From assembly GCA_965655095.1 (NCBI GenBank), contig OZ296659.1, positions 13,764,001 through 13,828,000 of the forward strand: a stretch of DNA of 64,000 nucleotides, given 5' to 3'. This document shows positions 13,601 to 28,782 of this stretch, one piece after another (the first letter of the stretch is position 1; each line of letters begins with the position of its first letter). The position numbers and the translations under genes are program-made. The notes beneath the pieces are model-generated. The model was not told where the DNA came from. It worked only from the letters and a program-made list of their open reading frames with translations, and did no database searches. Source of the stretch: Haplodiscus bocki (Eukaryota).

Positions 13601-14645
13601 GTTGGGAGAAGATAGCAGAAGTTATTGATAAGTGAAAATAGATGGAAAATAATGATGAACAAATCGTTTCACAGGAGGCAGACGTTGAATTGAGGCTGTA
13701 AGATTTTCGCAGCGACGCAGGGAGCACAGTGTGGGTCGAAAAGAAAAGTTAGGCGCTTCGTTAAAGAAAAATGGGAGAGTAGAGGCCGAGGGAAGACACA
13801 AATGGATGAGCACCGAAGGAAAGCAGCGATTTTGTTGTACAAAGGGACTTGGCAAAAGACGGGTGTATGGGTGTTAGAAAAAGACAAAGTCGATGATTCC
13901 CAAGAAACTTGTCATAACGAGGGAATGCGTGAGAGATAATTATCTAAGGAGGTAAAGTAGGAAATAGTACACAATGAACCTGACAAAGTTATTGATTTGG
14001 ACGACTTGGAAATTGTCGGACCAAAAGCCTCAGCTTTTTGAACGGAACCAAGACCATCAAGCGGATTTGATGACGAAATGTGACTGAGAACAACACATGA
14101 TTCTACGGAAATCGTGTTCATCCGCAATGTGCCAGAGGAAGTCGCAACAACTTAGAGCCCCCAGAAGACAATTATAATTTGAATGAACGGTACATACTGA
14201 GTTGAGCTTAATGTTGATATCCTGTTTATCCTATATCCTATCTCTTATCCTATTTATACAAGCCAATAGTTCCTTGTTGATTGGACAGTTAATATTATTG
14301 GACATTATTGAAAAAAAATCTTTTTAATGTAATTGAGTAATGTAGTAAAGCGCCAGCTCGCATGATGATCTGAAATAGAATTGGTGTTACAAGTTGTTGA
14401 CAGATAGTGATACACACGAGGTGCGATTTCTAATATTGTTACTTTGGCATACTACCGAAAGCGAGGATGAGATTAATACACTCTTTTGAATAAATTGTTT
14501 AACTCATCCAACCCGATAACGAGTGCACACAAATATGCTATTGAAAATATTCAGAAAAATTAATCTTCCGATATCGGGGAAATTACACTCATTAAAAAAA
14601 TGAACGTGTTTGTCTGAAAAATTTGTATGAGTGCAAATGACTGAC

Positions 14646-14883
14646 CAAGTAGGATGTTTTCGGGTTTAATGTCTCGATGGACGATGAACTTGCTGTGCAT
14701 GTGGGCAAGAACTGAGAGTAGTCTGTGCATGATCTGTCTCGTCTTCTTGCTAGAAACCGTGACCACTCTCGTCATGTAGTCAAACAGTTCTCCCTGAGGA
14801 CAAAATTCCAGCACCAGGAAAATGAACGATCTAGTCTCAAACGACTCGTGCAACAATATTACGTTCTCGTCACCACGCATCTC
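14646..14883 (-). CDS. PHKG: Phosphorylase kinase gamma, coding exon 2
   Basis: Acceptor ggtctttag| (phase 0), donor |gtcagt (phase 1). Encodes FIFLVLEFCPQGELFDYM and the catalytic loop IVHRDIKPENILL. Confidence 0.93.
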
Positions 14884-15923
14884 CTAAAGACCGGAAACAA
14901 ATGAGAGTCGACTATTGAGTCGCCTTTTGAATAAAGATTTCACAAAAACTACGTCTATTAACATCGACAGACTTTTCGTCCTCAACTGAGGACAACCATT
15001 TCTCCAGAATCAATTGAAGATTACACAATACGAAAAGGACACTCAAAAACGAAAGTTTGTTTTTATTCTTGCAATTGATTGGGCTAAGCATGATGAAAGT
15101 ACACTTCATCGATCGAACCTTTCTCCAAACTACTCGAAAAAAAAACGCCGATTTTTGGTAGATTTTTCGATTTCTCGTTGGACTGACGCGGCGAAAAAAA
15201 CGAACATTTTCACACATCATTTGTAGACTAATCATATAATAAAGTTTAGCGCGATTTTTCAAAACCAGAGCTTTTTGGAAAAAATTATTAAATTTCCCAG
15301 AAAAAGAATGCACATTATGAATGATGTACTCATACTCCAAATCAAATTTCTATGTAATTATACTCTTGAAATCAGCATCTCACTCTAGCTAGGTATAGTT
15401 TCAATAATGAATGAAAAGAAGAGGGGAGTATCAATCATTCACGAAATGACCACAAAATTGAAATTTGTACAGATTGTGTCTAAAAGTGAAGTTAGGACAG
15501 TCACGCACGTTGTTGACTGGTCCTAACACGAGAACCATGATGTCAACAAAAATGTGACCGAGCATTTTTTGACTTGATTTGTAAATTTTTTAAAGAGGCG
15601 AAACTGGGCTTAACAACACTTGCACCAGCAGAATACTAGTGAACAAACCAAACAATATGACTGATTTTTGAAGGCGCCATGATAAAACGAAACTACTGAT
15701 CAAACAATTAAAACAGAAATTTAATTAAGTCGGTTAATTCTTTACAAACTTATATACAAATGTAACAAGTACGAACAGCTATACCAGTTATCTCCCTTTA
15801 TTTTTAAAACAAGGGCGCACGCTGGAAAATAGGCCATTTGAACGATTTTTCGCAACTGCGAGAGCGCATGAACGAAATCTAGGCAACATTACAATGAAGG
15901 CACAAAAGCGACTTGTGAATGTA

Positions 15924-15974
15924 ATCGGAGAAGAAGAATCAGAAGCCTGTGGTATAACACCTGCTTGCGCAAGT
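15924..15974 (+). repeat. 3' fragment of the same SINE family as 6310-6480
   Basis: atcgga.aagaa...tataacac.tgcttgcgcaagt is shared with 6429-6476. Confidence 0.55.
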
Positions 15975-15992
15975 CAATGATCTTTCACGTAA

Positions 15993-16606
15993 GTAAGGGG
16001 CAGTACCGAGAATCGTAAGGGGCAGTACCGAGAATCTCCATATTCGTATTATAGCGTCCCTTAGCGTGGGGAGCTATTTGTTGTGGTTATTTTTGGCTAA
16101 GACTTGAATTATGCGGCTACCTTTCTAAGTAAAAATGTATTTCTTCCAGGTATAAAGAGTTGAATTTTTTGTTAAACGAGAACTCACATTTCAGATGAAG
16201 GTTTACAGCAGAATGATTACAAATATTTCCAGCAAAATTGTTTACAGCATTAAAACGATTACAAACTTATAGTTGTTCAAAAATTATTGGGAGCGATTAT
16301 AAATGTACTTCTAATCCATTAGAAATTGCCGACAAGCGGCGTGACTTGAACATTCGGTCAAACGAAAACAATTATTCAGCGCAAGCTTAGCCAATAAATG
16401 CAATATTAGAGAGTCGCGGTGATACGAGGGGGGATGATTAACATTACTGCATCAGGATTAAATGCGAAGGAAATTTAAGCACTACAAAATGGCAGGCCCG
16501 GAAATAAATGTGCACTGAGAAAAATAAATAACCGAAAAGAAATACTAAATTGACTTTTGCGTAAATAAAACGAGAAATGTTTTCTGTTTGTGTTTGTTAT
16601 ATTACA
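15993..16606 (-). repeat. Putative 3' LTR (~600 bp)
   Basis: On the minus strand it starts TGTAA at 16606, right after the purine tract aaagaaggg (16615-16607), and ends ...ccccttac. The terminal 22-mer gtaaggggcagtaccgagaatc is tandemly duplicated (15993-16036). No second LTR is present to confirm the call. Confidence 0.55.
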
Positions 16607-16677
16607 CCCTTCTTTGAAGAATGCGTCCGCGCATGATGAAAGAAGCTGAGGGGAAGGGTGGGTGAGAGAAGAAGTCA

Positions 16678-17440
16678 TTACAAGAGGTCGTCCAAGGATT
16701 CGTACAGGGGTCTGGGGTTACAGTGGCGACAAAAATGTGTTGTATCTTTACGATTGACGGCACGAATGCCGCAACAGTCGTAAATTTTACGGGTTGTGGG
16801 GTCCACTATAATGTTGTGAATGGCTACAAGTTGCCGGGAGATGTTTCGATCAACACCGGGATTACGATCTGGACTACAGAGGCGGATTAATTGATGGTAG
16901 TGCTTTTTAATATCGGCGGTGGAAGTGTGGCGGTCAGCGGCTAAAACTGTGTAAAGGAAATTTGTGGGCGTAACTTTGTCCATGTATACGATGTCAGGCA
17001 CGGTCAATTGATAAAGAAGCTGGTGTAGGAAGGGGAGAGCTTGACCGTCCGCATACAGATTAGCAACTTGGGTTCGGAGATCAGAGATCGTATCCTTTGA
17101 ATCAGCGAGGTTCCTGTCGTCGAGGCGTTTCTGGCGGGTCATTTCTTCGAGGGACCGCAGTGTGTCTTCGTAAGTTTGTTTCTGTTTTTCGAAGGCTATC
17201 TCTAGCCGATGAACCGACGCTTTTTGTGCTCCCAACTCCTTGCGAGTGTCAGCCAAAACCTGCTCAAGTGTTTCTACAGCTTCATTTTTTTTCGATGGGC
17301 GGCAAATTCAAGGTTTTCGAAGCTGTCAGTGTAGCACGAGACGGAAGTTTGAATGGGGGTTGTCATCATGCCGAAGTCTGCAATGTCTGGTAAGACAGGA
17401 GGAGGGGTGAGGGCGAGTAAAAAGGCAGTTCACAATCCAT
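16678..17440 (-). pseudogene. Accessory gene: coiled coil + DnaJ-like domain + Cys-rich tail (open frame 17256-16678; upstream part needs two frameshifts)
   Basis: LYTVLAADRHTSTADIKKHYHQLIRLCSPDRNPG...LVAIHNIIVDPTTRKIYD matches the J-domain consensus (Y.vLgv...as..eIKkaYr.la...HPDkN...i..Ay.vLsDp.kR..YD). Heptad region upstream. ATG at 17440 (MDCELPF). Confidence 0.75.
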
Positions 17441-17661
17441 CGGCTCGGTGTTGATAGCCAGAGATTGGAGATTTTTCGGGGAAGTCGCATTTGGGTGAGA
17501 AGAGACCTGATTTCTTGCTTCCCATCGCTGGAAACACCATGAGACTGTCTGATGTGGGGTTGCAGCGAAGAACACGATAAGGGGTGGGGTCGATGAGAAA
17601 CACAATAGAACCGGACTAAGAGTCAGCAGCAGAAGAAGCACTGGGCAAAGCAGAAGAGAAC

Positions 17662-17685
17662 CTGAAACAGAAAATAATTAAAACC
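17662..17685 (-). promoter_or_regulatory. Candidate splice acceptor ahead of the J-domain gene
   Basis: ggttttaattattttctgtttcag|G on the minus strand: branch-like ttaat, pyrimidine tract, CAG. Confidence 0.55.
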
Positions 17686-17738
17686 TTTTTTTGGGCAAAG
17701 TAAAAAAGACAAAAAAAAACAGTGGGCGACAAAAAAAA

Positions 17739-18139
17739 CTCGTGCCAAGCACGGAACTACAGCAGAGCTGTGAAATGCCTAATCTGGTGAAATACACACG
17801 GAACTGCAGCAGAGCTGCGGGACTCCTATCCTCGTGGGGAAAACCACGGAGAAAAAAAAGTGCGAAGTAGATGTCTCGTGAGTGAGTCACGGAAAGCGTA
17901 GCGGGGCTATGCCCTGAACTACTGGAAACCAGCGGAAACTCGTGGAAAACCACGGAAAGCCTAAAACCTCTTCAGCAGAGCTGAAGGATGAGAAGGGGAA
18001 CCTATTCTCAAGTGTTACACTCACAGTTCCAAGACTGTGGACCTAAACTTTCTCGGTGGAAAAGGCACCGGTAGGACACGTAAAAAATAAACTCGATACT
18101 AAAGTATCGGAAAACTGATCTCGGCGGCTGAGCACCGAT
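17739..18139 (-). other. Array of ~13 short stem-loops of two types with compensatory substitutions
   Basis: Type A, CT-stem-loop-stem-GA: 17739, 17784, 17831, 17875, ~17920, 17939, 18020, 18052, 18092, 18120 (the 17784, ~17920, 18052 and 18120 copies deviate). Type B, cagc-aga-gctg: 17759, 17806, 17970, plus variant tagc-ggg-gcta at 17899. Confidence 0.75.
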
Positions 18140-18164
18140 AAATGATAGACGTAGAGGTTTGAAA

Positions 18165-20463
18165 TTATGTCGCCGAGGTGTAAACATCAGTTATGTCAGG
18201 ATACAAGGGGTTCTGAGGAGGAACGCATGAGGTTATTTCTGTGTCACTTCGAGCAAGGAATTCGCGGGCCAATCCTTTGACAGCCAGGAATTCAGCATCC
18301 GTCATGCACAGGAAAGCTGTTGTTACGTCGTTATCATCGTCGTTCAGGTTAGGAACAATGTGTAGGAATCGGCCGTGCGTGCCGCGGAAGAACCGTTGTG
18401 GGTGTTTGAAGAGACGTTGCCACTGACGCCGGAAGAGCGTAAAACTGATGCTGAAAGAGAAAAGAGAAATAGTCATGGATACACATGCCAGTCAGAAAGC
18501 AGTCCGCATAGGCATGTAATCTGCTAAAGCACGACTGGTGTAAGGAGAAATTGTCGTGTAATAGTGTGAAATTGGTTGGGCCACTGTGCGAAGATCCTCG
18601 TTGGTCATTGTTTTCACGTGGGGCAAAGCTGCCAACTCCAATTGTACGCTAGAAACAATCTCTCTGCAGGCTTCACCAAATGAATACACGTTCAAATCGC
18701 CGCTGGCAGGAGGTGGGGATTAAAGACTGCAGCCAAAGAAGGTGTGAGTTTGACTGATGCAACGAACGGCTCGGGTCGGGTTTCACAAAAGTCCATATCG
18801 GGGGTAAGAACAAGATCCCCGTGATTGAAGGTGAGTGTGGACGAACAACTGGGTCGAATAAGACATGCTTGACACTGGAGGGTGGATATGGATACAGGTA
18901 AACCATCGGTGTCGTTTTTGACCTGTAAACGAGCAGTACGAGATATAACGTGATAAAGACCATCCGCTATATAGGAAGCTTGCGGGGCCTCAGGCAACAA
19001 GACAGAGTCCACTAAACAATTGCGAAGAGCTGGGATGCTGTACTCAAAAAATAGAGACGTTAGGCAAAGAAGAGTTTCATCAGTTGTGGTAGAAAAACCT
19101 TTACTGCATAATTTAATTCGATTTGTTCCAGAACATTAACTGAGGGTAGTAGCACTCAATTCAGCATACTGTGAGTTATCAGTAGCGATGGCCATGAACT
19201 CATGAGAGAAACGATAAACCGAAGCTGTCGTACCATCCTCGTTGGGTTGATGCAAAGGAATGGCGCAATAGGCATCGAAGGTGGACGATTTTGAGTTCAT
19301 CGGTATACCTAAGACAATGGAGAGGCCTTCTTGCAAAACAGTGATTTCGAGCACAATTTGGACTTCATAGTAGGTATCCTCAAAACCAACTTGAATCGCG
19401 GGTGTCAACTTCGTACCTCGGCGGATCTCTTCGGCGGTAAGGTCCTCGACGATTGCAGCAAGTTGATCGGAAGTGAGGAAATTAGGTGGAACAAATCCAG
19501 AAGAGCGAGGACACTGCGGAATACATGGAGGTCTTACATAACACAAATGAAGCACGATAAGATTTCAAATGCATAGAAGCAAGGTCCAAGTAGGACGTGT
19601 AATTGTGGACTTTGTCCACAATGATTTCGAAGTGACGCTGGATACTCATGCAATTACTCATAATGATAAACTGGGAATCGAGTTGACGAATGGCTTATCC
19701 TGTAGCATCTAAACGGGCATCGATAACGTCTCGTGAGGCTTCAACGCTCTTCTGGTATCAGCGATTTCTGTGCCCAGAAGGAAAAATTTTTCGTTATTGG
19801 CTTGTTGGACGCGATGGAGACTTTTCTCAAAGGCAGCCTGACGCTGAAGTAGATTGCGCACATTGTTCTTCAAAACGGAGTTATCACTGCATAAGCTAAA
19901 GATGGAAAGGGCTTTGCAGGCAGCATTTCGTGAAACAAGACCGGCGACACCAGAGGCTGCCATGAGTGCGGGAACAAGTCGTCGTTGTCGATGATGAGGA
20001 GTGCCAATAGAAGGAGGCTGCATTGGGGGTGGTGCAAATGAAGATGCAACACGTAAGAGTTCAGCGTAATCTTGTGCAATAGCAGAACGTTCATCCGCAA
20101 GCAGGTGGACACGATATTCAGTACTTTCTCGGAGGCCATTGGCTCGATCCAGGGAGGTGTACATAGCGATTGCGCAGGGCTCGTCAGACGCAACTGTTTC
20201 TAGAAAGGGCAAGGAGGTTAATTTGTTGTGAATGTTACTGACGAGATCAATAAGCGAATCGACTGCTGTTAAATCAACTGGTGGCAGCTTTGGAAAAGGA
20301 GAAAAGACACGAACTTTGCTTTCACTTTCTGAAGTGACGGCTTGATAGTTATAAATGAACGCAGCGCCTTTTTGGATAATTGGAGTGCCATCTGTAGGAG
20401 GACCATCGGGAACAAACTGTCTCACAGGGACATTGGATACGAGAAAAAAAACGTTAAAAACAT
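18165..20463 (-). pseudogene. env: Envelope class I fusion glycoprotein (baculovirus F / errantivirus env-like), disrupted
   Basis: Hydrophobic signal (MFLTFFF..), furin site HHRQRR, fusion peptide LVPALMAASGVAGLV, heptad repeat LKNNVRNLLQRQAAFEKSLHRVQQAN, Cys-rich ectodomain, TM LACVSMTISLFSFSISFTLF + RRQWQR, cytoplasmic tail. Split over ORFs 19709-20425, 19136-19555, 18692-19012, 18492-18695 and 18165-18476. Confidence 0.8.
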
Positions 20464-20859
20464 GTTAGAAAGCAAAATAGGAACAAAAATCGAGAAAAAA
20501 CTATGGAAAAAATTAATTCTGAATTCACGGGTGATAAAATTCAAACTAAATGCTTACAACAAGAAAAAAAATACTTCTAAAACTTCTAAATCAGAATGTC
20601 AGCTTTTTACGTTTCAAAATTTTCGGCTTTCATCTTCCCAAGTGCTTAATACCGTGCTTAACACCCTCATTTTGATATCCAACGATTGAAATCTTAAATT
20701 GATTTCTAGCACGTGTTAAAAACAGACCATGTTAGTTTTCTGCCCACTCTGCTAAAAATGGGGTAACCTTTGATTAGAAAGCAATAAACCAGTGCAAAGT
20801 ACCAGCAGAAAAACATTTATTACGATAAACTTTCTTCAATAGAATGTCTATTAGCAAAC

Positions 20860-21129
20860 CTTGAGAATGACAATTTCGCGCTTTGTTTCGTCCACAATTT
20901 TCTTGCCCTCGTCCGATCCGATATCAATAATCTTCACCGCATACTCATCACCTGTAGCTTTTTCTACACATTTTCTGACCACACTCACCAACCCCCTGCC
21001 CAACACCTCTCGGGGCTCGTAGCGGGCATAGAACTCGGCCCCGTCCTCTTCGCAGGGCAAGTCAGCACCCCCTACAACCATGGGCACACCACCGGCAGAG
21101 GTGGCGTTTGCTGATTCAATTATAGTCAT
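20860..21129 (-). CDS. PHKG: Phosphorylase kinase gamma, coding exon 1
   Basis: ATG at 21129 with an in-frame stop upstream at 21174. Encodes EFYARYEPREVLGRGLVSVVRKC and YAVKIID. Donor AAG|gtttgc (phase 0). The four exons total 1203 nt, i.e. 400 aa. Confidence 0.9.
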
Positions 21130-21787
21130 TGCTGCTGGTACCAAAGCTAAAGGATTCGCAAAGGGGTTCGTTCATTACAGCTGATTCAAACGGCGGCTGA
21201 CAAAGCAGTCCTTGGCTACAGTACATTTCATCACGACATTTTTAATCTAAAAAAAACGAAATGAATCATCTAAATACAGTACTCTTGTTAATTCGTATTC
21301 GGATATCAGTTTAATTCGCATTTGATTTCAGACAATAGTGACGGCAATCATGTATTAAGATCTCTGTGAATTCTTATTATTGCTCGTAATTCGTACAATG
21401 TCATACGGTTCCTAGCGCAACTAACTAGCATGATTCCGCTGCGTCTGCTTTTCAAATTACACCTAATCTTTTTGGGCATAAAACCTTATTGATGTTTAAG
21501 AATGCAAATATTTTTCTCGAAAGGAAACCATTTTATTACGAAATTTCGTTCAAAAATAGAGCTCACCAAACAAAAAACACCCCTTTCTTACACAAAGGAA
21601 CGTTGAATGACCTTGCCAATTTTTGCTTAGCAATTCAGCCTCTCCTTGAAAGAAAAAAGAAAACTTGAAAGACTCAAATGACTTCCTGAGATACTAATTT
21701 GAAAAGAAAATTGAATGGCCCATATGTATATTTCTCATTTCAATTTTCCCAGGCAATTATTTCAAATAAAAGACATTCAAACAAATT

Positions 21788-22757
21788 TCAAACAACAGAT
21801 GGAAAAAATTGTTCACATATTGAAGAAAAGCTCTCAAAATCAGCATCGTCCAATTGCAAACAAGGATCAACTTTCGAGCCAACAGCTGCAGTTTCCTTCT
21901 CAGTTTCCGAAACAAAGGAAGATTCTAGGACCGCAGTTTGCTTTGTTTTGAAAGTAGTTTGTGACCCAATACTTTTAGTACGTTTTCGCTTCCGATTTGA
22001 ATTTTCAGAAACATGCGAAGCAACTTCATAGATTGTTTGGGTGTAAGCATTTTGAAATTCAACGATTTTTTCCGTTTGGGAGCAAACGTCTGTTGTTTCA
22101 ACATTGGGTTCATATTGCATCAATACACTTCCAAAAGGCAGCATACTGTTTGGTTTGAACAAGCTATCCAGAACTTTGCAACTTCGCGATACCAAAGCGA
22201 CCACGTTTTGGTCATTACTGTTTCTCGCGTTCGCAAAAACATCAGCAATGATAGAAACTGGTGGCGTACATTTAGGGTTTGGGCGTAAAACCATAGATTG
22301 TAATAGCTCCAAAAGAGCGCATTTTGAAGATGAAGATACAAGAAAACTGAAATTGGGGTATTTGCTCAAAAAGTCTTTGCCTAAACCGAGCTGGCTCGGA
22401 AATGCGGCCATTGCGATAAAAGCAACTTTGTTGTAGACTTCGTGAAGAGTAGCGGGTGATATGTAATCAGAGCATTCGCAGAGTACAGTTGAGCAAAAAC
22501 CCAAAAGGTCAACAATAAAACAGTTCAAGAGGTGTTTTGAATTTGATTGGCTGGTCCGAAAAAGTTGCAACGAAACTTCAGAAGCTTGATTACCGGAAGT
22601 AGTTGAGCAACCTTGTTTCCTCTTCTTCGCTTTCGGCTGTGACTCAACTGGTTCCGTGAAGTCCTCGTGAAACAGAACAAAGCGGTGGCAGGACTTAATC
22701 GATGACAACAGCACAGAATCAAGATGTTCTTTAGAAAAACAATAACGGCTAACTTTC
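21788..22757 (-). CDS. PELP1: PELP1/Rix1-like ribosome biogenesis (rixosome) protein, coding exon 2
   Basis: Acceptor ttttttcag| is in frame with exon 1 (CG|G). CALLELLQSMVLRPNPKCTPPVSIIADVFANARNSNDQNVVALVSRSCKVLDSLFKP resembles the conserved PELP1 segment LLLALLLAPSPRCPPPL...HPRVP. Basic NLS KKRK. Confidence 0.68.
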
Positions 22758-22868
22758 CTGAAAAAAAGTTAAAATTCAAAATTAATACCAGGATTTTTTC
22801 ATGAACATACAATTTTAAAAATATCTACGAAGGAAAGAATTCAAGTTTTCTCAATTATAAAAACTAAC

Positions 22869-23917
22869 CGAATAATTGTGCGAGCTGTGTATAGAACACT
22901 TGCCAGTAAAGATACATAATCTTCATACAAGCGCATTTGGTTAAAATTCAATGAAGACAAATAGTTGGAAGCTGATTTCAAATAGCAGTCAACTGTTGCT
23001 ACCACTCCTTTCATAGCCGGTAAACAAAGAGTCCCGCATCGCTGGAGAACCACATCCAGAAGTGATACCGTATTTTTCTGGATAGACCAAAAAGGACACA
23101 CGCCGCCATCCTCAGCTGGCGCATACTGCAATAATCTTCGGCACAAATCAAAAATCATGTTGACCGGGAGATCAACTAAAAGGTCAACCTTAACGGATAC
23201 CAAATGTTTGAGTATAGAAATCAGGCATGTAACAAACCCAATAAACGCATGTTCACTCAGTTTGAGCAAATCTTCTTTCGTGCAAAACATTTTAATTTCG
23301 TTGAGTTCATTTTGTAATCCGGCATTTTCTTTGACTGACGCATCTTTGTAAATTTCATGTTTGTAGCACAAGTGATAAACCGATTCGCATAAATGTGACA
23401 CATTTGATGCATAATGCAGTCTGAAAGACGAACTGTTCAGCGCTGACCATTTTCCAGCCAGGACAATTTTAACGAACAATTTAATTTTGCTTTCCTTTAG
23501 CCTCCAAGAGACTTCGGTGACGGACAGATGTGACAAATCTTTGAGAATTATCATCAACAAGCTTGTTCTGAATGGATTAACTGCGCCAGGAAAACGATCA
23601 ACAACTATTTCAAGCAAATCAATCTCAACAGTGTAATTTTTGAGACTGAATTCGCCCAACATCTCAGATCTCCCAAACGAACTAATAAATCCTTTCAGGA
23701 AACTTGAAACAATATTAGAACAAGAAAAAGTTTCCGTGTTTGACAAAAACTTTTCTATCTCTTCGGCCATAGCTTGTTTTTCCGATATTTTTTTATTCTT
23801 TTGGTTGAAAAGCGTCTGAATAATTCTGATTACTTTCGATGTTCCCTCATTTTGGTTCTTGGAACTTTTTAAAACTGCAAGATCCATCGCGGTTGTCTCG
23901 TCTATCATCAGAACCAT
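22869..23917 (-). CDS. PELP1: PELP1/Rix1-like protein, coding exon 1 (helical-repeat N-terminus)
   Basis: Long Leu-rich helical ORF. Donor CG|gttagt at 22868. A 111-bp intron joins it in frame to exon 2 (total 672 aa). A likely 5'UTR intron lies at ~23920-23981. Confidence 0.65.
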
Positions 23918-24241
23918 CTCTAAAATATGAATTCATATTTAAAAATGCTTAATAAAATTAGCAATTTACTAAATTTCAAACCTTGAGCTTACAACACAGC
24001 ACAATGATTTGAGCGACACTACCAAAAAAGGAGTTCTAATGAACTGAAACAGAACCGCGGCCGTAGAATAAAATTAGTAAATGGAGCCATCGGTGGCTAT
24101 TCACAGATCCGAAAAAATAGCTGGATTGAAAAACTTTTCAGTATCGAAATCGGTACTGTCGGCACTTCCAAGTTGTCGGCATTGCGCGAGTTATGCGTGC
24201 CCCCGCTACGCTCGCGGACACTAACCTCCTGCCGCAGTAAC

Positions 24242-24589: not shown

Positions 24590-27500
24590 CAGACGCACGA
24601 GCTGAAAGCTTTGTTAAACAATCGGCGACCTCTTTGTCAGACGGTACCCAATAAAGTCGATTAACAGACCCAACATCAATATGAGACCGAAGACAAGGTA
24701 TCTCGACTCTCAACCCTTTGTCTTTTGGTTGAATATACGTTCTCCACTAAAGAACAACTGTCAGTATAAGCGTTAACTTTAAGCCTTTGCGTTGTTAATT
24801 CGAGAACCAATTTATGGCAAACAAGTGCTGCCTCGATTCCATTACAACAGGCAACAGTTTCTGCAAATAAAGTACTGCGAACGACTCGTCTGAGCTTCTG
24901 AGATCTCCAACTGAGTAAAGCTGGTTTACATCCAGGCTGATTAATGAATACCAGATAACCAGCTTGAGTACCCCCACAAGGAAGGTTACCAAATGACGCA
25001 TCTGTAAAACGTCAATGGAAAAATGTTCTGATAAATTGCTAAATTTCTGATAAATAAGGCATAAATCCGATGAAAACTTTAGCTTTCGTACGATTTTGTT
25101 TGCAGCTAAGAAATGACATCTTTGCCATTGACCGGCAAACGATAATAACGATGAAACAGCAAACGCAATATCAGGTCGAACCTGACAGGCAATCCATTGA
25201 AGTTTACGAAGTAAAGCACGTAAATCACGCATGTGAAATTTGTCGGCAGAAAGGAAATCGACTGAAACTTCTTTTACACCCGACAAATAGGCGGACAAAT
25301 CAAGTCGGATACAATTGTCTGTTTGAGAAATCTCAAAGCCCGAATAAGAAAAAGGAGTTTTCTGACTAGAGCGAACATCAAAAACTTCATTCAGCTTATC
25401 AATCACCTCGCACTTAAACGAGACATTTCCAGCCCATAAGAAATCATCCACATGAGTAGCTATCAAGCCGTACACGTCGCCCCGAGAATCTTTCTTGTAA
25501 AACAAACAAGGATCATACATTGACACGATACACCCGACATTCAATATTTCAGTTTTAACTCGGTCATACCAGTGACGCGCTGCGTCAACCAAACCGTAAG
25601 TACACTTCTTCAGTTTCCAAAGAACACCGACAGGAGCAAAACCAGCTGGAGGCTTGATAAAAACATCTCTCCGCAAGTCACAACCTTGTAAGAAAGCCGT
25701 ACGTATGTCCATAGTATTACACATCCACTGCATATAGGAACAAAACCAAATAAAAACTCGCAACGTGTCTTTTGCGCAAGTGGGTGAATCTTTTACGACT
25801 TGGTCTAAAGCAGGGTCTTCAAAACCCCTGAGTACCAAACGCGCTTTCTTTCGATCCGGCTTTGGGTCAGAACCCAACGACACGTCCTGAATGGTTGTCC
25901 AAGATCATCAACTTCTTCATAAACCGCTTTGGATTTCCAATTAGCTAGCTCGTCCAGTTTGGCATCTTTGTATTCATCCACAGTAGTGATGAAGCATTGA
26001 TCCGCATCAGTTGAACAACATACATCGGATCAATAAAGCGGATACATCGACATAATCAGTCTGACCAGCCAATTTTTGAGGAGACTGATAAATCACGTTC
26101 CACCAATCAGAAAACTCTCCAGTGGCTTTTCCACCTCTGCTCTTCACAACGGCAGTTATCTGTCTGCCATCAAAGTCTGGTACACGTGAAACAAATTTCA
26201 GTGTTTTCCCGATACATTCGGTTGAACTAAAGACTCCACATTTAAAGGTGTCGCTTGATCAGGCTCCGAATTAACCTGTTCATGGTCAGGCGAAGAAAGA
26301 TCAGGAATGGGCAACTGAGACTGCAAGGTAGATTCAACAACAGGCTCCTCCTCGTCGGAAGAATCACAATCAGGAGATGCAGATGCAGGGACATCCGACA
26401 ACACTTGAGAACTCGTCATTGTTTCCGCGCCTCCTGTTAAATCATCAGAGGTGGCTGTAGAATCATTACAGGAGGAACTCGAATTTGAATTGGACACTGA
26501 AAAACGCAATTTGGTACGGTGAACTTTGCACACTTTACCGCCTTGCTTAACATATACAACAGCTCCATCTTGGCCAATAACAAAACCTGGACCTTTCCAT
26601 CGATCATCTGACTCACGTTTGTAAAAAACGCGATCACCCAAAACAAATGGACCATTGTCATAACGAAAATTTGACTTCAGTGCCCGCTTAATCCCGTTAC
26701 TAATATCCGCTTCAATGAAGAACTGTCTGGCTTCGTTCAACTTGAACAATAATTTTGACACCGATTCACTAGTGGTAGTGCACTCAAGAGCCGGAGGCTG
26801 ATTAGTAAATATGGAAGGTAATCGTGGTCCGCATCCAAATGCAATCTGATACGGAGAAAACCCATCATGGTTAAGCATGCTGTTCTTAGCGAAAACAGCA
26901 GTTTTGAGTGCAGTTTCCCGGTCGTATTGATGTGAATCATCAGAGATAAGCCGGTTAAACATATCAGTGAGTACAGCGTTATGGCGCTCAACAACACCAT
27001 TTGACCACGGCGAATACGCTGCAGTAGTTTTCATGACAATATCGACATTTTCTGCGAAAGAATGAAAATCAGCGTTATCAAACTCCCCTCCGTTATCAGT
27101 CAAAACAGCTTTTGGGTAACCGAAAGATAAACACCAGTTACGGAAAAATTCGGTAATGGTGGTAGTCGGCCGTTTATTAGTAATGAACACTGCTACTGAA
27201 AAGCGACTGAAAACATCAATCATGTGAAGGTACCATAAAGAAAGACCAGAACCACTAACTTCATGTAAATGAAGTGAAACAGTGTGGTTCCATTCTTGGG
27301 CCAGCGGTAACCCCACAACAGGCCTCGGAAGATCACGGCCGAAACGCTGGCAGACATCGCAATCATTCATAACGGACTTCACTTGATCAACTGTTACAGA
27401 CACACCCGCTTTTCTCAGTAACGCGTGTAATTTTTCACTGCTACAATGAGCAAATTGTTTATGTAATTTCTCAATCTGAGAATCATCAACAACTTGAGAC

Positions 27501-28782
27501 ATTGCTAAACAACTAGCAAACACAGTTCTGTCGAAACTAAAATCAAGAAGGAGGTGTCCACTGGTGGACATAGACAGCTGTATGGGGAACTTCTCACTGG
27601 TATACAATGTTTTGTTCGCAAAATCTATCTCGAAACAAGCTTTAGTCATCGAGCCAACACTAATCAATAACGGTAGATCTCCAGGTATCACAAAAACAGT
27701 CAGCATAAACGAGGTATCCCCAAAACGAATAGGAATTGTATACTTCTTCTTAGCACAGACTCGATAACCGCCCCCATAAATGATGTAAGAATCAGATGGC
27801 TGAACAGACACTAGTTCGCGTTGCTCAGGAGAAAGTCTGTTAAGATAGTTCTCCATCCAGGTAAAACCAGAAACAGTAACTGTACAAGCAGAGCCAAGCA
27901 CACCTTTACCAAAAGATTCCTGTAACAGAGAACCTGTAACCATCGCCAAAATAATATAAGCTGTGCCATCACCAACATCAGTTTCACGAACTTTCTTCGA
28001 TTCTGCATCGGCCTCCTGAGAAACATGCGCCGATTTTTCTTTATCAGGACACGCGTTGGCCCAATGGACACGTGAACCACAAACTGCACATGTAGAAACT
28101 CGACCATCCTTGTTCAGAGGATTTGTTCCAGTTGGTCGACTTCCTTTCTTACCACTGAATTTGGTATTGGGACGTTGATAAATCTTTAACTCCCACCCTG
28201 CCCAGATGCAAACACTGGCTCCTCCTTTATAATCTGAGTAGCGTCACTTGGAACAGACACACTCGCAACGGAAGAAGAGGAAATCCTGCGTAAACTAGAT
28301 TTCATTTCTTCATAAGTCACCTGTGGAGTTGCAGATAAAGCCAATTTCTTGTCCCGCTCATCCAAATCAGAACAAGAAAGCAACTTCCAGGCCAAAACTG
28401 CAGGAGGAAGCACTAACTCGTGTTTAACTAATTTCTGGTACAAAGAATCAAATAAAGTGATATACTCAGTAATTGGCTTGTTTCCACGACGAAGTTTTTG
28501 AAACATTTCATAATCATGAAACATTTCATCGACAAGGTCTCGTCCAAATAAAGACTTTAATTTATCCAGTAACGTCTTTAAGCCTGTCTCGGCTTTCAAA
28601 TCTGCTAAAGGGATAGCTCTAGCGGCCTCGCGCTTAGCACCTGTTAATGATAAAGCTACAGCGGGAGCCTTTTTTTCTTCTGCCAAACCAGTAACGGCAT
28701 CCCACATTTCCACTTCCGTCTTCCAAGACTAATCTAAGTCGGGTCCCCATGCCGGTGGGGTTTTGTAATTGGTGTGGGACAT
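24590..28782 (-). pseudogene. Copia gag-pol polyprotein with stops and frameshifts
   Basis: ATG at 28782. Zn knuckle CAVCGSRVHWANAC. Protease motif mutated to LGSAC. Integrase LHKQFAH..CDVC, IDVFSR, TDNGGEF, VERHN. RT KARLVLRGFED, YGLVDAARHWY, HVDDF. RNase H end VADCLTK. Confidence 0.93.

Follow-up and report, generated by a model that had tools for sequence, protein, structure and literature searches.

A retroelement remnant with a J-domain gene

We analysed a stretch of 64,000 nucleotides of the Haplodiscus bocki genome (assembly GCA_965655095.1, contig OZ296659.1, positions 13,764,001 to 13,828,000), hereafter the window. Its minus strand carries the decayed, 5'-truncated 3' third of a Ty3/gypsy retrotransposon, which runs from the envelope gene (env) to the 3' long terminal repeat (LTR) and contains an accessory gene encoding a J domain (Table 1). 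This 4.4-kb remnant is 91-92% identical to full copies elsewhere in the genome (blastn). In its 5' to 3' direction we found an env remnant, a spacer of ~480 nt, an acceptor-like site, the accessory open reading frame (ORF), a polypurine tract and the LTR, which confirms an earlier preliminary description of an env-bearing LTR element with a J ORF at this locus. The remnant lies inside an intron of a host protein-kinase gene and has the same orientation as that gene, whose downstream exon has phosphorylase kinase gamma as its best named relative (76% identical).

The boundaries proposed in the preliminary description had to be revised. The LTR is indeed repeated at both ends of full copies, but it starts at 16601 and not at 16606. 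The element had also been drawn as extending to 15993, where a perfect 22-bp tandem duplication (15993-16036) adjoins the LTR end; we ruled this duplication out as a part of the element, since it is situated beyond the LTR and no other site in the genome has the exact pattern.

With its truncated 5' end and with SPD as its J motif, the window copy is dead. The accessory gene suffers a frameshift near 17295, so the ORF at 16678-17307 (209 amino acids, aa) is just the C-terminal part of a protein of ~330 aa. It matches the J-domain family PF00226 (E 7e-9). Hence, the J domain of the coiled-coil and J-domain ORF described earlier stands, whereas the ORF is incomplete and lacks the canonical HPD motif.

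Table 1. Features of the window associated with the element and its host gene.
Feature	Position	Strand	Basis
Ty3/gypsy element remnant	16050..20449	-	blastn against full copies (~12.9 kb)
F-type env remnant, four frame-broken pieces	18165..20449	-	match to env of other copies
Structured non-coding spacer with short repeats	17680..18160	-	folding; Rfam search of related copies negative
Predicted splice acceptor: pyrimidine tract, AG 17663-17662, first exon base G 17661	17661..17680	-	
Accessory gene (beta-barrel, Pro-rich linker, coiled coil, J domain, Cys cluster), frameshifted here	16678..17661	-	
J domain PF00226, SPD in window copy	16777..16956	-	
Polypurine tract	16605..16615	-	
3' LTR, ends TATA..TATA	16050..16601	-	LTR found at both ends of full copies
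Predicted splice donor in LTR; exon side ends AT (16189-16188), GT 16187-16186	16183..16189	-	
Host gene similar to phosphorylase kinase gamma; its exons in ORFs 20851-21171 and 14560-14883 are on either side of the intron with the element	14560..21171	-	

Full copies and their class

Searching the genome with the J ORF yielded 151 matches; 150 of 1056 candidates were scored. We read ten copies, each as two overlapping stretches, and found an LTR, leader ORFs, gag, pol, env, the spacer, the J ORF and a second LTR. The full element is ~12.9 kb long (12,864 bp in one measured copy). Pfam matches identify a CCHC knuckle in gag and the order protease, reverse transcriptase (RT), RNase H and integrase in pol. 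Among solved RTs, the RT-RNase H region is nearest to that of Ty3 (E 1e-87), with retroviral RTs matching at 1e-39 or weaker. Most full copies have LTR pairs that are 98-100% identical, one pair being at 84%; their primer-binding site (PBS) starts with TGGTGACA, and 4-bp target-site duplications flank six of the seven copies checked, the seventh being within a tandem array. Taken together, pol order, RT affinity, LTR identity, PBS and target duplications indicate that these are Ty3/gypsy elements that were recently active. Membership of BEL/Pao, the other class considered in the preliminary description, was ruled out: there is no BEL/Pao-type Pfam match, the RT is nearest to Ty3 and gag has a single CCHC match. 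A list of BEL-specific markers was used for this test.

The full copies have several other particular traits. Their LTRs end in TATA..TATA or TATA..TAAA instead of TG..CA (loci L031/L032, L051/L071 and L079/L075). Elements also occur in tandem arrays in which an LTR is followed directly by a second PBS and leader (L047:9130-10000), and in one array near 106.13-106.16 Mb (G000 C3) the env matches are ~12.2 kb apart. Between RNase H and integrase, pol encodes a TARG1/OARD1-like macrodomain (L047:1950-2402; PDB E 2e-23), with a weak Macro match also in family 4; this domain may counter ADP-ribosylation. Three to four small ORFs conserved in families 1-3 lie between the PBS and gag (L048:6583-7561, L071:7589-8561, L075:6352-7807). 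They encode a CxxC/His protein, a short membrane protein, which in families 2 and 3 has a PPxY-like motif, and a protein of ~105 aa that is duplicated in family 3; none has a significant Pfam match.

The env pieces of the window, at 18168-20449, match the unbroken 778-aa env of other copies at 88-95%. Of the features attributed earlier to the window env, the furin site, fusion peptide, heptads and transmembrane segment were recovered in the env of full copies, whereas the first ~12 codons are lost in the window, so that most of the signal peptide is absent there. In the 778-aa protein the conserved furin site RQRR occupies residues 166-169, a hydrophobic, fusion-peptide-like stretch follows it in 24 of 24 aligned envs, and the C-terminal hydrophobic segment spans about 667-690. 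Matches to Pfam Baculo_F (PF12259, E 1.8e-7, above the cut-off) and to PDB 9w4c, a 'fusion protein' (E 1.3e-5), support an F-type env. A profile search against baculovirus F was weaker than the single sequence (E 0.045-0.07), and an AlphaFold model of low confidence (predicted local distance difference test, pLDDT, of 51) was too poor for a fold test and gave no meaningful match.

The J gene is a conserved element gene

The J gene lies between env and the 3' LTR in six of the seven element families examined. A listed J match was found 0.2-3.5 kb downstream of 59 of the 68 family-1 env matches. Three of the nine misses were fetched, two of which have the J gene and one of which does not. Among 20 listed loci that were retrieved through their env (identity down to ~52%), the J gene was present in 19, and env was upstream of J in all 16 loci fetched by distant J proteins. 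The HPD motif is kept in 57 of 67 copies across the six families, between which J proteins are just ~23-35% identical, and its departures are scattered changes in single copies. These 67 loci were picked by similarity, and the sample therefore leans to well-kept copies.

We estimated the ratio of non-synonymous to synonymous substitution rates (dN/dS) by the Nei-Gojobori method. It is 0.09-0.24 for J in the seven unsaturated of 12 pairs, while one further pair near saturation gives 0.12 and four yield no estimate; for env it is 0.10-0.19 in the four unsaturated of six pairs. None of the unsaturated pairs comes from the window copy's own family, where dN is 0.23-0.40 and dS is at or near saturation. 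The trees of J and env have a deep split in common, separating families 1 and 2 from families 3, 5, 6 and 7 (midpoint root; long branches flagged). The J ORF is thus a genuine element gene under purifying selection. The ORF might have been a nested insertion, or a captured host DnaJ pseudogene decaying without a role in the element, as the broken window copy with its SPD would suggest, together with the best matches among solved structures, which are cellular J domains. This is hardly credible in view of the fixed position in six families, the conserved acceptor described below and the deep split common to J and env, and it is contradicted by the purifying selection. The expectations of the preliminary description, a J ORF between env and LTR in most copies with dN/dS below 1, were borne out, and none of the observations it named as adverse (J absent elsewhere, a nested insertion or pseudogene, a non-repeated LTR) was made.

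Of the J protein, family 4 (env ~45%) keeps just the N-terminal barrel in five of five loci, and it has no J domain. In one of its copies (L085:5614-7737), env is followed by a barrel ORF standing alone and by two RING-like ORFs with weak Pfam matches (E 3e-4 and 0.03), and the env of this family is in frame behind pol after one stop codon. In families 3 and 7, J is followed by an ORF of ~200 aa with a basic tail (56-66% identical; L059:8768-9382, L097:7617-8405) that has no match in Pfam or the ESM Atlas; on these negatives, a GDSL/SGNH reading of the family-3 ORF is unsupported.

A profile search retrieved additional full-length relatives of the J protein. For one of them a search of this genome at E 1e-10 found nothing, and two others match at best at 48-52%, which is why the J-protein family probably extends to other genomes. 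An env (P0021) and a J protein (P0421) from an NCBI source, each listed with a contig of 3,477 bases, may be neighbours in another organism.

A start codon built by predicted splicing

The J ORF lacks a conserved start codon. The position of the first Met behind the acceptor varies between families (codon 12-14, 40-45 or 76-88), and in many cases it lies within the barrel or beyond it. Ahead of the ORF, all six J families share a pyrimidine tract and a YAG of constant phase, and the base that comes next is G (A in subfamily 1b), in agreement with the acceptor that the preliminary description had predicted from the sequence. This first exon base is G in 22 of the 23 matched family-1 loci; the A of subfamily 1b has an in-frame ATG directly behind it. 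Each J-bearing LTR type contains a GTNAG donor, located 140-257 nt upstream of the end of the LTR. In families 2, 3, 5, 6 and 7 the exon side of this donor ends in AT at 24 of 25 loci, and in family 1 it does so at 27 of 30, the other three not being matched by the pattern. Eight visibly different donor contexts, in LTR types that are related by descent, are all AT|GT, compared with 18 of 206 such sites (8.7%) in the window background. None of the five donors of family 4, which has no J domain, ends in AT.

With a donor ending in AT and an acceptor starting with G, splicing would build an ATG. Hence, the J gene is likely translated from a spliced RNA whose junction would create the start codon. 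We looked for a leader exon with its own ATG and found none. Trans-spliced leaders ending in AUG are known from flatworms; as a start for J, such an AUG would be out of frame. The donor-to-acceptor joint was not seen in four sequence runs of unrecorded kind, which gives no evidence either way.

Architecture of the J protein

The predicted J protein (mean pLDDT 71) consists of a beta-barrel (residues ~10-62), a disordered proline-rich linker, a helix of ~105 residues forming a coiled coil, a J fold and C-terminal cysteines, the last of which form a cluster conserved in the alignments. We found no transmembrane segment in it. The four-helix J fold is recovered in the model (VIA Z 9.3, root-mean-square deviation 1.6 over 72 residues). 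The resemblance of the SH3-like barrel to Spt5 KOW domains and to Tudor domains is weak: Foldseek gives E 0.05-0.3, and VIA Z values of 7.2-7.5, as obtained here, often arise by chance. An ESM Atlas search with the J protein returned scores that were all under 0.9.

The spacer and the exchange of J alleles

The spacer of the window copy is structured, as noted earlier (fold z -3.28, with 0 of 100 shuffles as stable). The matching regions in eight other loci are structured as well, their best 120-nt windows having z of -2.1 to -5.3, and four related loci gave no match in Rfam.

The J genes are exchanged between otherwise similar elements. Between subfamilies 1a and 1b, the spacer, the end of env, gag and those parts of pol that were compared are 99-100% identical; starting at the J acceptor and across most of the LTR, the identity is lower, at 37-76%. 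Families 3 and 5 show this break too. Among 20 further and four earlier copies, J1c goes with LTR type 1a and J1a with type 1a or 1b. These pairings show that J alleles are exchanged independently of backbone, spacer and LTR. J alleles with saturated dS are found on backbones that share up to 99-100% identity in env and spacer.

These patterns bear on two alternatives to the role that we propose below. The J protein could be a regulator akin to Rev or CERV: made from fully spliced RNA, it would use barrel and Cys cluster to bind the spacer, which is present in intron-retaining RNAs only, and Hsp70 would assemble or release an export or packaging particle. The spacer is structured at the same position in the eight other loci tested and would be removed from the J message by splicing, the barrel resembles Spt5 KOW domains, and CERV, encoded by a spliced 3' ORF of the C. 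elegans element Cer1, is described as having essential cysteines and as being required for the export of genomic RNA (PMC10309623). However, the spacer remains associated with the env backbone when J alleles that are 56-70% identical are swapped, which argues against a tight RNA-protein pair. We consider this main rival doubtful. The second alternative is that the J protein transactivates its own LTR in the manner of Tas or Tat, with the J domain as a helper. In its favour, the swapped block spans the J acceptor through most of the LTR in three subfamily pairs. Yet J1a and J1c both occur with LTR type 1a, and J1a also with 1b, so that J and LTR recombine independently; a transactivator is very improbable.

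Elsewhere in the window we observed, on the minus strand, a separate decayed Copia-type element (24676-28728; RVT_2 and rve) and two long ORFs of 326 and 363 aa (21788-23932) that form an apparent host gene without a Pfam match.

A possible role in Hsp70 recruitment

J-domain proteins are described as stimulating Hsp70 through helix II, HPD and helix III, with other domains choosing the client (PMC10410713). The preliminary description had suggested a complex lineage with an accessory protein resembling an Hsp70 co-chaperone. The conserved J accessory gene is now established, and we infer the co-chaperone role from the J fold and the conserved HPD. We propose that the J gene is an accessory gene of an env-bearing Ty3/gypsy lineage, expressed by splicing, whose product would recruit host Hsp70 to a target that is probably of the host. 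As a whole, this proposal, built on sequence and on models, has in our view an even chance of being right. Its steps differ in strength. The LTR donor ending in AT would very probably join the acceptor G to form the ATG. The product would, with good probability, be a soluble class C J-domain protein that oligomerises via its coiled coil of ~105 residues, and its helix II and HPD would stimulate Hsc70, a step that we regard as slightly safer still. Finally, the N-terminal SH3-like barrel (KOW/Tudor-like) would pick a client for Hsc70 to remodel or dismantle, by analogy with the action of the SV40 T-antigen J domain on Rb-E2F; whether this client is a host RNA-processing or silencing complex, which we favour over a strictly cognate part of the element, is close to balanced. 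The tilt towards a host client, which is what the SV40 T antigen acts on (PMC13254874), comes from the free swapping of divergent J alleles on one backbone.

Several observations weigh against this proposal. Allele swapping fits a sequence-tolerant client within the element equally well. The matches of the barrel are weak, as described above, and the eight donor contexts are not independent draws, because their LTR types share descent. Family 4 has young copies, with LTRs 99.9-100% identical, that have no J domain, which means that some lineages can do without J. In families 3, 6 and 7, helix II is devoid of the usual basic residues, although HPD stays, and Pfam either gives no match or scores short of the DnaJ cut-off (E 2e-4 to 0.05). 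This divergence of helix II, together with the retention of the barrel without J in all five family-4 loci, would also be expected if the gene were real and its J domain no longer worked with Hsp70, serving as a helical scaffold or a decoy. We find that improbable, as HPD is kept across proteins that are so dissimilar and is lost only in scattered single copies.

The recruitment of Hsp70 could be part of a broader picture, in which these elements are invertebrate complex retroviruses with several accessory genes, a splice-built start codon as expression switch and exchangeable Hsp70-adaptor alleles that dismantle a host anti-transposon complex. We put this forward tentatively, as a possibility that we think unlikely to hold in full. 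If true, it would represent an undescribed counter-defence strategy of retroelements.

Comparison with known systems

We found no description of J-domain genes in LTR elements in the literature searched, which did not cover Repbase and most subscription journals. Env-bearing Ty3/gypsy elements with an F-type env, the 'errantiviruses', are already known to be widespread (Chary & Hayashi, PMC13524379). As described there, they share with our elements the order gag-pol-env, an F-type env with furin site and fusion peptide, and many near-identical young copies. What the elements analysed here have in addition is a J gene that follows env, small ORFs in the leader and, between the RNase H and integrase domains of pol, a TARG1-like macrodomain. 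The available main text of that study has no mention of DnaJ, J-domain, macro, accessory or splice, and four taxon terms and one env motif were not found in its seven supplements, where cell text is searchable to 400 characters and sequences may be hidden.

Extra genes near the 3' end of retroelements have precedents. The ORF3 cargo of LTR elements of bdelloid rotifers (GDSL esterase, DEDDy exonuclease; PMC5408684) is likewise modular and exchangeable and located near the 3' end of Ty3/gypsy elements. It replaces env, in an account that, as far as available, does not mention DnaJ, whereas the J gene is additional to env. The CERV of Cer1, compared by its description (PMC10309623), is also a spliced accessory ORF before the 3' LTR with conserved cysteines, splicing being predicted in our case. 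In contrast, the text available to us on CERV contains no mention of a J domain, and Cer1 has no recognisable env.

Further parallels are viral J-domain proteins such as polyomavirus T antigens and phage J-domain proteins (PMC13254874), where a mobile element also encodes a J domain joined to its own targeting parts. The baculovirus BJDP and giant-virus DnaJ proteins (BFVD) are similar in this respect, with weak fold matches (E 1e-3 or worse). All of these belong to DNA viruses, and the consulted part of that source lists no retroelement. Env-bearing Ty3/gypsy elements are described as having three genes, and the sources cited here, in the parts consulted, list element-encoded J domains for DNA viruses only. 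The conserved J protein offers a directly testable handle on the use of Hsp70 by retroelements, and also on the question whether accessory-gene systems comparable to those of complex retroviruses arose in the elements of invertebrates.

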